From Escherichia coli (GTDB lineage: Bacteria > Pseudomonadota > Gammaproteobacteria > Enterobacterales > Enterobacteriaceae): a stretch of DNA of 64,000 bases. A program made the position numbers and the translations under genes. Of the stretch, positions 53,659-55,950 are shown in pieces. Every line of letters starts with the position of its first letter. Positions within the stretch are counted from its first letter, which is position 1. The notes under the pieces are model-generated. The model ran no database searches and was not told the origin of the DNA. It saw only the letters and a list, made by a program, of their open reading frames with translations. Where the stretch lies: NCBI RefSeq assembly GCF_002854065.1, contig NZ_CP024147.1, one strand, 5' to 3'.

Positions 53659-54934
53659 TTAATCTTTCCAGTTCTGTTTCGCGTCTTTAATAAAGGAGAG
53701 CGTCACCATAATGTTGACGAAGAACAGCGGGCATCCTCCGGCGATAATGGCGGTTTGAATCGGTTTCAGGCCGCCGAGCGCCAGCAGAACAATACCGATA
53801 ATGCCAACCAGAATTGACCAACCGATACGCACCAGCAGCGGCGGCTCTTCACCATCGCGTACTTCGCGGCAAGTGGACATCGCCAGGGTATAAGAGCAGG
53901 CGTTAACCAGCGTAACGGTGGCAATAAAGCAGAGGATGAAGAAGCCCCACATGGTGGCGGTGCTGAGTGGCAGAGCGGCCCAGGTTTCGATGATGGCGCG
54001 CGCCACACCGTACTGTTCGATCAGATTTGGAATGTTGATGATGTTTTTATCTATCAACAGCAGAGTGTTACTACCGAGCACGGTCCACAGGATCCAGGTT
54101 GACGCTGTCAGCCCCATCACCATGCCGAAGCACAGTTCACGCACAGTACGACCACGGGAGATGCGGGCGAGGAAGATACTCATCTGGATAGCGTAAATCA
54201 CCCACCATGCCCAGTAGAACACGGTCCAGCCCTGCGGGAAGCCGCCTTTAGCGATGGGATCGGTATAGAACAACATGCGCGGCAGATACATCAGCAACAT
54301 CCCCACCGAATCGGTGAAGTAGTTCATGATGAAGCTGGCACCGCTGACGATGAACACCCAACCCAGCATCAGGAAGCTCAGGTAACTACGCACGTCACTG
54401 GCGATACGTACCCCTTTTTGCAGACCGCAGGCGACGCAAATGGCGTTGAGGATAATCCAGCAGGTAATGATGATAGCGTCCAGTTGCAGGGTATGCGGAA
54501 TGCCAAACAACCATTGCATACACTCGGTCACCAGCGGCGTGGCAAGGCCCAGACTGGTACCCATCGCGAAGATCAAGGCGACGAGATAGAAGTTGTCGAC
54601 GATGGTACCGAACAACCCTTTGGCGTGTTTTTCACCTACCAGCGGCACCAGTGTCGAGCTGGGGCGAATCACTTCCATTTTGCGGACAAAGAAGAAGTAA
54701 GCGAAGGCGACTGAAAGGAAGCTGTAAGTGGCCCACGGCAGGGGTCCCCAGTGGAACAAGCTGTAAGCCAGCCCCAACTCTTTCGCTCCTGTCGAGTTCG
54801 GTTCTAAGCCAAACGGCGGGGTGGAGATGTAGTAGTAGATCTCAATCGATCTCCAGAACAGTACGGCAGCAGACGTACAGGAGGCGAACATCATAAAGAT
54901 CCAACTGGCGGTACTAAATTCAGGTGGTTCGTTA
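53659..54934 (-). pseudogene. caiT: caiT 3' fragment (C-terminal ~425 codons of the carnitine/gamma-butyrobetaine antiporter), split by IS1
   Basis: ORF 53659..54948; native BCCT-family sequence from ...[12 protein letters not shown]... onward, with IS1-derived N-terminal residues. Confidence 0.9.
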
Positions 54935-54989
54935 GGTGATGCTGCCAACTTACTGATTTAGTGTATGATGGTGTTTTTGAGGTGCTCCA

Positions 54990-55265
54990 GTGGCTTCTGT
55001 TTCTATCAGCTGTCCCTCCTGTTCAGCTACTGACGGGGTGGTGCGTAACGGCAAAAGCACCGCCGGACATCAGCGCTATCTCTGCTCTCACTGCCGTAAA
55101 ACATGGCAACTGCAGTTCACTTACACCGCTTCTCAACCCGGTACGCACCAGAAAATCATTGATATGGCCATGAATGGCGTTGGATGCCGGGCAACTGCCC
55201 GCATTATGGGCGTTGGCCTCAACACGATTTTACGTCACTTAAAAAACTCAGGCCGCAGTCGGTAA
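54990..55265 (+). CDS. insA: IS1 InsA (variant, F>L near C-terminus)
   Basis: ...[16 protein letters not shown] versus ...[16 protein letters not shown] in copies 1 and 2. Confidence 0.9.
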
Positions 55266-55687
55266 CCTCGCGCATACAGCCGGGCAGTGACGTCATCGTC
55301 TGCGCGGAAATGGACGAACAGTGGGGCTATGTCGGGGCTAAATCGCGCCAGCGCTGGCTGTTTTACGCGTATGACAGTCTCCGGAAGACGGTTGTTGCGC
55401 ACGTATTCGGTGAACGCACTATGGCGACGCTGGGGCGTCTTATGAGCCTGCTGTCACCCTTTGACGTGGTGATATGGATGACGGATGGCTGGCCGCTGTA
55501 TGAATCCCGCCTGAAGGGAAAGCTGCACGTAATCAGCAAGCGATATACGCAGCGAATTGAGCGGCATAACCTGAATCTGAGGCAGCACCTGGCACGGCTG
55601 GGACGGAAGTCGCTGTCGTTCTCAAAATCGGTGGAGCTGCATGACAAAGTCATCGGGCATTATCTGAACATAAAACACTATCAATAA
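55184..55687 (+). CDS. insB: IS1 InsB (variant)
   Basis: [21 protein letters not shown]...YAYDSLRK versus [21 protein letters not shown]...YAYDRLRK in copies 1 and 2. Confidence 0.9.
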
Positions 55688-55702
55688 GTTGGAGTCATTA
55701 CC

Positions 55703-55950
55703 GGTTCGTTACCTAAACGCTTTTTGGCATACGGGCCAAACACCAGCCAGAACCAACCGAAAAGCATCACCACCATATACCATTCAAATGCCCATCCCCA
55801 TACATTGGTGACGTAACTGAATACAGCATTAATAACGATATTCGCCGCATCCAGATCTCTGACTGTAAGCCAACAAAGTATGCCGACGATTATTAATGGC
55901 GGAAAGAAAACCTTCGGTTCTATTCCCGTTTTTCTCTTTTCATTCTTCAT
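55703..55950 (-). pseudogene. caiT: caiT 5' fragment (N-terminal ~82 codons), split by IS1
   Basis: ORF 55681..55950: [39 protein letters not shown]... then runs into IS1. Confidence 0.9.

Follow-up and report, generated by a model that had tools for sequence, protein, structure and literature searches.

Organization of the interrupted caiT gene

The window analyzed here, i.e., the whole 64-kb stretch of Escherichia coli DNA, is collinear with coordinates 1-49,974 of K-12 (about 98% identity), and 39 of the 41 K-12 genes compared across it are full-length and free of stops, the exceptions being caiT and caiC. The IS186 that is located in K-12 between dnaJ and hokC is missing at window positions ~24248-24260, where the dnaJ side is directly joined to the hokC side. 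The order of genes in the cai-fix region is the same as in K-12, namely caiF, caiE-D-C-B-A-T (minus strand), and fixABCX (plus strand), and caiT, with which caiTABCDE begins, is transcribed divergently from fixABCX. The genes caiF and fixABCX, as well as the cai-fix control region, are intact.

The interrupted caiT extends on the minus strand from position 55950 to 53659 and contains a complete IS1 of IS1A type (54935..55702, 768 bp), which lies on the plus strand, in the orientation opposite to that of caiT. The element is bordered by two copies of the 9-bp sequence GGTTCGTTA, the left one at 54926..54934, corresponding to caiT nt 240-248, and the right one at 55703..55711. A scripted search of both strands of the window detected this sequence only at these two places, while the probability of a chance match between two given 9-mers is 4^-9 (~4e-6). 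The repeat cannot be extended, as its two copies differ both in the preceding base (T for the left copy, C for the right one) and in the following base (G and C, respectively). Since the duplicated 9 bp are caiT nt 240-248, the 5' fragment of the gene (nt 1-248; 55703..55950, minus strand) provides 82 codons and 2 nt, and the 3' fragment (nt 240-1515; 53659..54934, minus strand), which carries the substitution G108R, provides about 425 codons. The first-pass annotation of this DNA had proposed a simple IS1 insertion with a perfect 9-bp target-site duplication, splitting the gene after about 82 codons and leaving about 425; direct reading of the sequence and scripted checks bear this out. As it stands, caiT has no intact coding sequence and, with IS1 at codon 83, is a pseudogene.

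The sequence between the 9-bp repeats is exactly 768 bp, starts with GGTGATGCTGCC / GGTGATGCTGCCAAC, and ends with GGAGTCATTACC. Its terminal inverted repeats are imperfect, with 18 of the 23 first positions matched (GGTGATGCTGCCAACTTACTGAT vs. the reverse complement GGTAATGACTCCAACTTATTGAT, compared by script). According to the list of open reading frames and their translations, the element contains insA (54990..55265, plus strand), which encodes the 91 aa repressor and DNA-binding protein, and the insB frame (55184..55687, plus strand), which is open for 167 codons. The A6C slippery motif AAAAAAC, at IS1 position 307 (55241..55247, plus strand), is the site of the -1 frameshift leading to the 232 aa InsAB' fusion. 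With the NCBIfam model NF033558 (equivalog for the IS1 transposase), this fusion gives a score of 243 bits (cutoff 100), which, together with the difference of only 1 nt from K-12 IS1A, confirms the identity assigned previously to the element at 54935..55702. The single mismatch in 768 positions falls at position 262 and is synonymous in insA; the differences from the IS1B/C type number 8-9. A promoter-like site found by consensus scan at 54942-54969, overlapping the left inverted repeat, represents the inward insA promoter.

IS1 is 768 bp long, generates duplications of 8 or 9 bp, and needs the A6C frameshift, and in K-12 BW25113 more than 99.9% of IS1 transposition is due to the IS1A/E type (PMC12428005). 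The caiT copy agrees with the family in length, inverted repeats, the insA/insB arrangement with the A6C site, the 9-bp duplication, and near-identity to the reference. As judged from its sequence, every requirement for transposition appears to be intact in this copy.

Reconstruction of caiT and its natural empty sites

Excision of IS1 and one repeat in silico, the check that had been suggested for the insertion, gives 1515 nt, i.e., 504 codons and a stop codon, with zero internal stops as determined by script. The rebuilt protein has the length of K-12 CaiT (504 aa) and differs from it in three residues (V38I, G108R, and L353M). Additional frameshifts or stops in the rebuilt reading frame had been named beforehand as what would speak against a simple insertion; they were looked for and none was found, so that this test does not refute the insertion. 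The assignment of the broken gene as caiT is also well founded, as the rebuilt protein reaches 937.8 bits with the equivalog model for CaiT, NF002887 (cutoff 541), and 555.6 bits with the BCCT family model TIGR00842, and its alignments with 3HFX and 2WSX, structures of E. coli CaiT, are full-length.

The closest matches to the window come from E. coli of Thailand wastewater and of Gambia human stool, and the closest complete genomes are those of strains CUWW06 (NZ_CP182139.1) and 100416 (NZ_CM128593.1), in both of which caiT and caiC are intact. A Shigella origin of the DNA, which the presence of three IS1 copies had at first suggested, was rejected, as these closest matches are ordinary E. 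coli and the genes compared other than caiT and caiC are intact. Both genomes contain at the relevant position a single GGTTCGTTA with flanks as in our reconstruction, which thus reproduces, base for base, the natural empty sites of two nearly identical genomes. After removal of the two IS1 copies of the cai operon and of one repeat for each of them, the window aligns with CUWW06 and with 100416 without gaps over 21,447 bp, with 5 mismatches in each case. In these comparisons, the flanks of the insertion showed none of the additional differences from the empty-site allele that would argue against simple insertion.

The open reading frame of the 5' fragment (55681-55950) encodes an 89 aa chimera composed of CaiT residues 1-83 and the sequence VMTPTY, the stop codon being located 18 nt inside the right IS1 end. 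We used this chimera as a fingerprint of the insertion in public assemblies. The exact 89 aa sequence is encoded in the draft genome GCA_035821435.1, in Logan assemblies of public sequencing runs, and on a chromosome of 4,639,454 bp; the caiT-IS1 junctions of the window are absent from all 5,426 complete E. coli genomes.

The lineage-specific substitution G108R results from a C-to-T change at position 54852 (plus strand) and is the sole difference between the rebuilt CaiT and that of strain 100416. It is missing from the nearest relatives and is common to the window and its sister genome GCA_035821435.1. The residue is a part of the LFWGSIE motif, three residues before E111. In an alignment of 126 full-length, diverse BCCT representatives (~25-60% identical to the query), E111 is conserved in 117. 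At position 108, 60 of the proteins have G, 29 have A, 28 have S, and 7 have C, T, or V, so that a small residue is present in 124 of the 126 and Arg in 0. The rebuilt 504 aa CaiT has no exact match in a collection of 15 billion proteins, hence an intact G108R allele is not known from any genome. Because the substitution affects a position restricted to small residues, precise excision of IS1 would bring back the open reading frame but plausibly not a working transporter. The earlier statement that excision restores the caiT frame is therefore to be qualified: restoration of a reading frame is different from restoration of function.

Predicted consequences of the insertion

Taken together, the observations make it almost certain that an intact IS1A-type element was recently inserted, by simple transposition, into codon 83 of caiT at the head of the carnitine operon, and nothing contradicts this structural reading. 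CaiT is thereby split into the 89 aa chimeric N-terminal peptide and a 3' fragment that has no start signals of its own. Transcripts initiated at the intact cai promoter would run into the right end of IS1, and their translation stops 18 nt further. As this early stop leaves about 750 nt of IS1 sequence untranslated, the insertion is predicted to be polar on caiABCDE, the expression of which would be lost by Rho-dependent termination. With the antiporter missing, and now CaiC as well, the anaerobic conversion of carnitine to gamma-butyrobetaine would be lost. We infer both the polarity and the loss of carnitine reduction from the established polarity of IS1 and from cai genetics.

A consensus scan of the left IS1 end for an outward promoter directed towards the caiT 3' fragment found none, the inward insA promoter being the only one there. 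An in-frame TTG at position 54948, within the left IS1 end, opens a reading frame of 429 aa that includes CaiT residues 80-504 with G108R; no convincing ribosome-binding site accompanies it. Residual expression of a truncated transporter from this frame could, strictly speaking, still occur.

The insertion was subsequently fixed in a small clone, and an IS1 of another subtype struck caiC afterwards in the genome under study. The latter event represents stepwise decay of an already dead operon, in which the direct IS1 copies now form a substrate for deletion.

IS1 insertions in the cai-fix region of other E. coli strains

The insertion in the window is not the only one of its kind. Of the 5,426 complete genomes, about 20-25 contain IS1 in a region of about 1 kb that comprises the 5' end of caiT, the cai-fix intergenic region, and the start of fixA. 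Since a genome has a median of about 11 places that match IS1, a rough uniform expectation for this region is about 11 genomes. A strong genome-wide hot spot was considered and rejected on this basis, as the excess over expectation is not striking; only the clustering at fine scale is. Independent junctions in caiT, in K-12 coordinates, are at 41681, 41684-92 (the window), 41688-96, 41697, 41755-63, 41766-73, 41774, 41817, 41825, and 41851. Under a uniform model for the 739 bp searched, the probability that all ten of these junctions lie within 171 bp is ~1.5e-5, and that of four or more junctions, including that of the window, within 17 bp is ~0.008. Other natural IS1 insertions or IS1-bounded deletions occur in CAVP879/880, SCU-308, H1827/12, MIN14, H32, KTa005, CP61_Sichuan, and other strains. 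Since none of the other strains has the junctions of the window, these are independent events.

An orientation bias, which was suggested at first by about 10 events of the same orientation, was rejected, because the initial search had joined only pieces of the same strand; a control query with flipped IS1 yielded 11 genomes with the opposite orientation. The two orientations are about equally frequent in the region (9 vs. 11).

Could the insertion have been selected, either because some niche favors the loss of carnitine respiration or because read-through from IS1 alters the expression of fixABCX? The micro-clustering of junctions in the caiT 5' region (at least 10 in 171 bp and four in 17 bp), the IS1-bounded deletions that have removed cai genes from several strains, and the reading direction of IS1 towards fixA would be in line with this possibility. 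However, the number of genomes hit only moderately departs from expectation (~20-25 of 5,426 vs. ~11), the even orientations speak against a read-through effect, and selection for loss of function predicts hits along the whole gene or operon rather than a micro-cluster. Moreover, the cluster adjoins an intergenic region of about 30% GC. IS1 has a regional preference for AT-rich DNA, with which the position of the cluster beside such a region agrees, and selection need not be invoked. We thus consider selection of the insertion improbable, though it is the alternative that fares best next to simple transposition.

A bolder proposal, which we regard as rather unlikely, if somewhat less so than selection of this insertion, is that the caiT 5' part (nt 80-250), and especially the 17 bp around the site of the window insertion, is a true IS1 hot spot and that the cai operon is recurrently destroyed in steps. 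If it were true, all stages of the process would have been sampled: the intact operon, caiT::IS1, caiT::IS1 with caiC::IS1, and the single-IS1 deletion scar. In some niches, selection against the respiration of carnitine could then be behind the recurrent destruction of cai.

Three strains have IS1 at one and the same intergenic site (K-12 42225-42233, duplication TGCTACGCC), in both orientations and of both IS1A and IS1B types, and in two strains with different IS1 variants IS1-bounded deletions end at the same base of fixA (K-12 42444). This suggests the existence of sharply preferred IS1 target sites in the cai-fix region. In strain ST540, the annotation shows an internal stop in caiT, and an additional IS1 is present inside fixA, which is another independent route to cai/fix inactivation. 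Our search for relevant literature on caiT together with IS1 found none.

A second IS1 in caiC and the order of events

Another IS1, of the IS1B/C type, interrupts caiC (49015..49782, plus strand, the same orientation as that of the caiT copy) and is flanked by its own 9-bp duplication GCCACCGCG (49006-14 and 49783-91). It differs from the caiT copy at 8 positions and from K-12 IS1B/IS1C by 1 nt, and is identical to the third IS1 of the window and to a copy of strain CX21. The connection of the caiT insertion with this second IS1 was absent from the first-pass annotation. In the sister genome GCA_035821435.1, caiT::IS1 and G108R are present and caiC is uninterrupted (517 aa), and the comparison of this genome with the window devoid of the caiC IS1 reveals 0 mismatches over 8,351 bp. 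The chimeric CaiC fragment was found only on the chromosome of 4,639,454 bp. As the sister genome has caiT::IS1 together with intact caiC, the insertion in caiT is the earlier one, and that in caiC is later and private.

The two direct IS1 copies bracket 5.15 kb of DNA (caiC'-caiB-caiA-'caiT; 49015-55702), an architecture of the Tn9 type that might suggest the arrival of both copies with the intervening DNA as a composite transposon. This is highly improbable, as the bracketed genes are native and collinear with those of K-12 and of the nearest relatives, each IS1 has its own duplication (GCCACCGCG and GGTTCGTTA, respectively) with none shared across the outer ends, the copies belong to different subtypes with 8 mismatches, and only the caiT copy is present in the sister genome. 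Neither a shared outer duplication nor foreign DNA inside, as expected of a composite transposon, was found, and the succession of the two insertions rules out their joint arrival. The pair could nevertheless come to function as a composite transposon later on, even though it has not arisen as one. The 5.15 kb between the direct copies could also be deleted by recombination. In strains MIN14 and H32, a scar with a single IS1 joins caiC/caiD to the 5' end of caiT, and it is the product expected from recombination between two direct copies such as those of the window.

The third IS1 (30681-31448, minus strand) is identical to the caiC copy, and is flanked by ...ATATTCTG and GACTCGTTG..., with no target duplication at these flanks. 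In comparison with CUWW06, it stands in place of 1,537 bp that contain the genes for a fimbrial chaperone and a fimbrial subunit as well as the 3' end of espX1; the site is an IS1-adjacent deletion. In K-12, the whole fimbrial/espX1 block is missing and IS1A is present in its place.

The IS1B and IS1C copies of K-12 BW25113 are essentially unable to transpose (PMC12428005). Copies of the IS1B type freshly inserted in wild strains include that in caiC of the window and those in JX4-T, Res13, and CX21. At position 704, K-12 IS1B/C have an A of their own, apparently resulting in InsB L152Q, which the wild copies do not have. The difference at position 704, or mobilization in trans, may be the reason for the apparent mobility of IS1B-type elements in the wild.

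The last alternative, namely that an assembler misplaced IS1 in a genome with intact caiT, draws on the multicopy nature of IS1 (three copies in the window) and on repeats being a classic source of misassembly, but it has a negligible probability and is effectively refuted already, as a perfect 9-bp target duplication is a signature of real transposition rather than of misjoining, the draft GCA_035821435.1 contains the left and right junctions with 100% identity on a pair of contigs terminating within IS1, as expected of short reads, and the junctions recur at 100% identity in Logan assemblies of separate runs (ERR10376543 and ERR3970133). The occurrence of the junctions in an independent draft and in read-set assemblies indicates that the insertion of IS1 in caiT is no artefact. 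It is real and common to a small clone.

Significance and comparison with known systems

Simple transposition of IS1 into caiT is a routine gene disruption of a kind that is well described already, and there is nothing mechanistically new in it. Its practical implications concern annotation, as caiT and caiC should be described as IS1-disrupted pseudogenes, and phenotype, as the strain is predicted to be unable to respire carnitine anaerobically. The caiT insertion may also serve as a clonal marker of a small lineage (GCA_035821435.1 and a few sequencing runs), and the locus as a tidy natural example of stepwise, IS-driven decay of an operon. Those who study the choice of targets by IS1 could take an interest in the hint of a target preference in the 5' part of caiT and in the apparent mobility of IS1B-type copies among wild strains, although neither alters the current understanding.

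The element in caiT resembles K-12 IS1A in its length of 768 bp, in 767 of 768 bases, in the insA/insB layout, in the A6C site, and in the terminal inverted repeats, and its 9-bp target duplication is typical for IS1. It differs in its location, which in the case of K-12 IS1A is between nhaR and rpsT, and in one synonymous substitution. The rebuilt CaiT corresponds over its full length, with three substitutions relative to K-12, to the structurally characterized L-carnitine/gamma-butyrobetaine antiporter of the BCCT family (PDB 3HFX and 2WSX), from which the window gene is distinguished by its break at codon 83 and by G108R.

Among the natural insertions in the cai-fix region, which involve the same element family and the same 5' part of caiT, those of CAVP879/880 are the closest to that of the window. 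They are located 4 bp off, with the duplication CGTTACCTA, and in CAVP879 the orientation of IS1 is the same. While MIN14 and H32 have lost the DNA between caiC/caiD and caiT, the window retains both IS1 copies and the genes between them.

Polar mutations caused by the insertion of IS1 are classical in operons such as gal and lac. The caiT insertion shares with them the presence of IS1 in a promoter-proximal gene, the premature stop, and the long untranslated insert. The classical mutations were those of laboratory mutants, whereas here the insertion is present in a natural isolate, is accompanied by a second IS1 downstream, and has a polar effect that is predicted.
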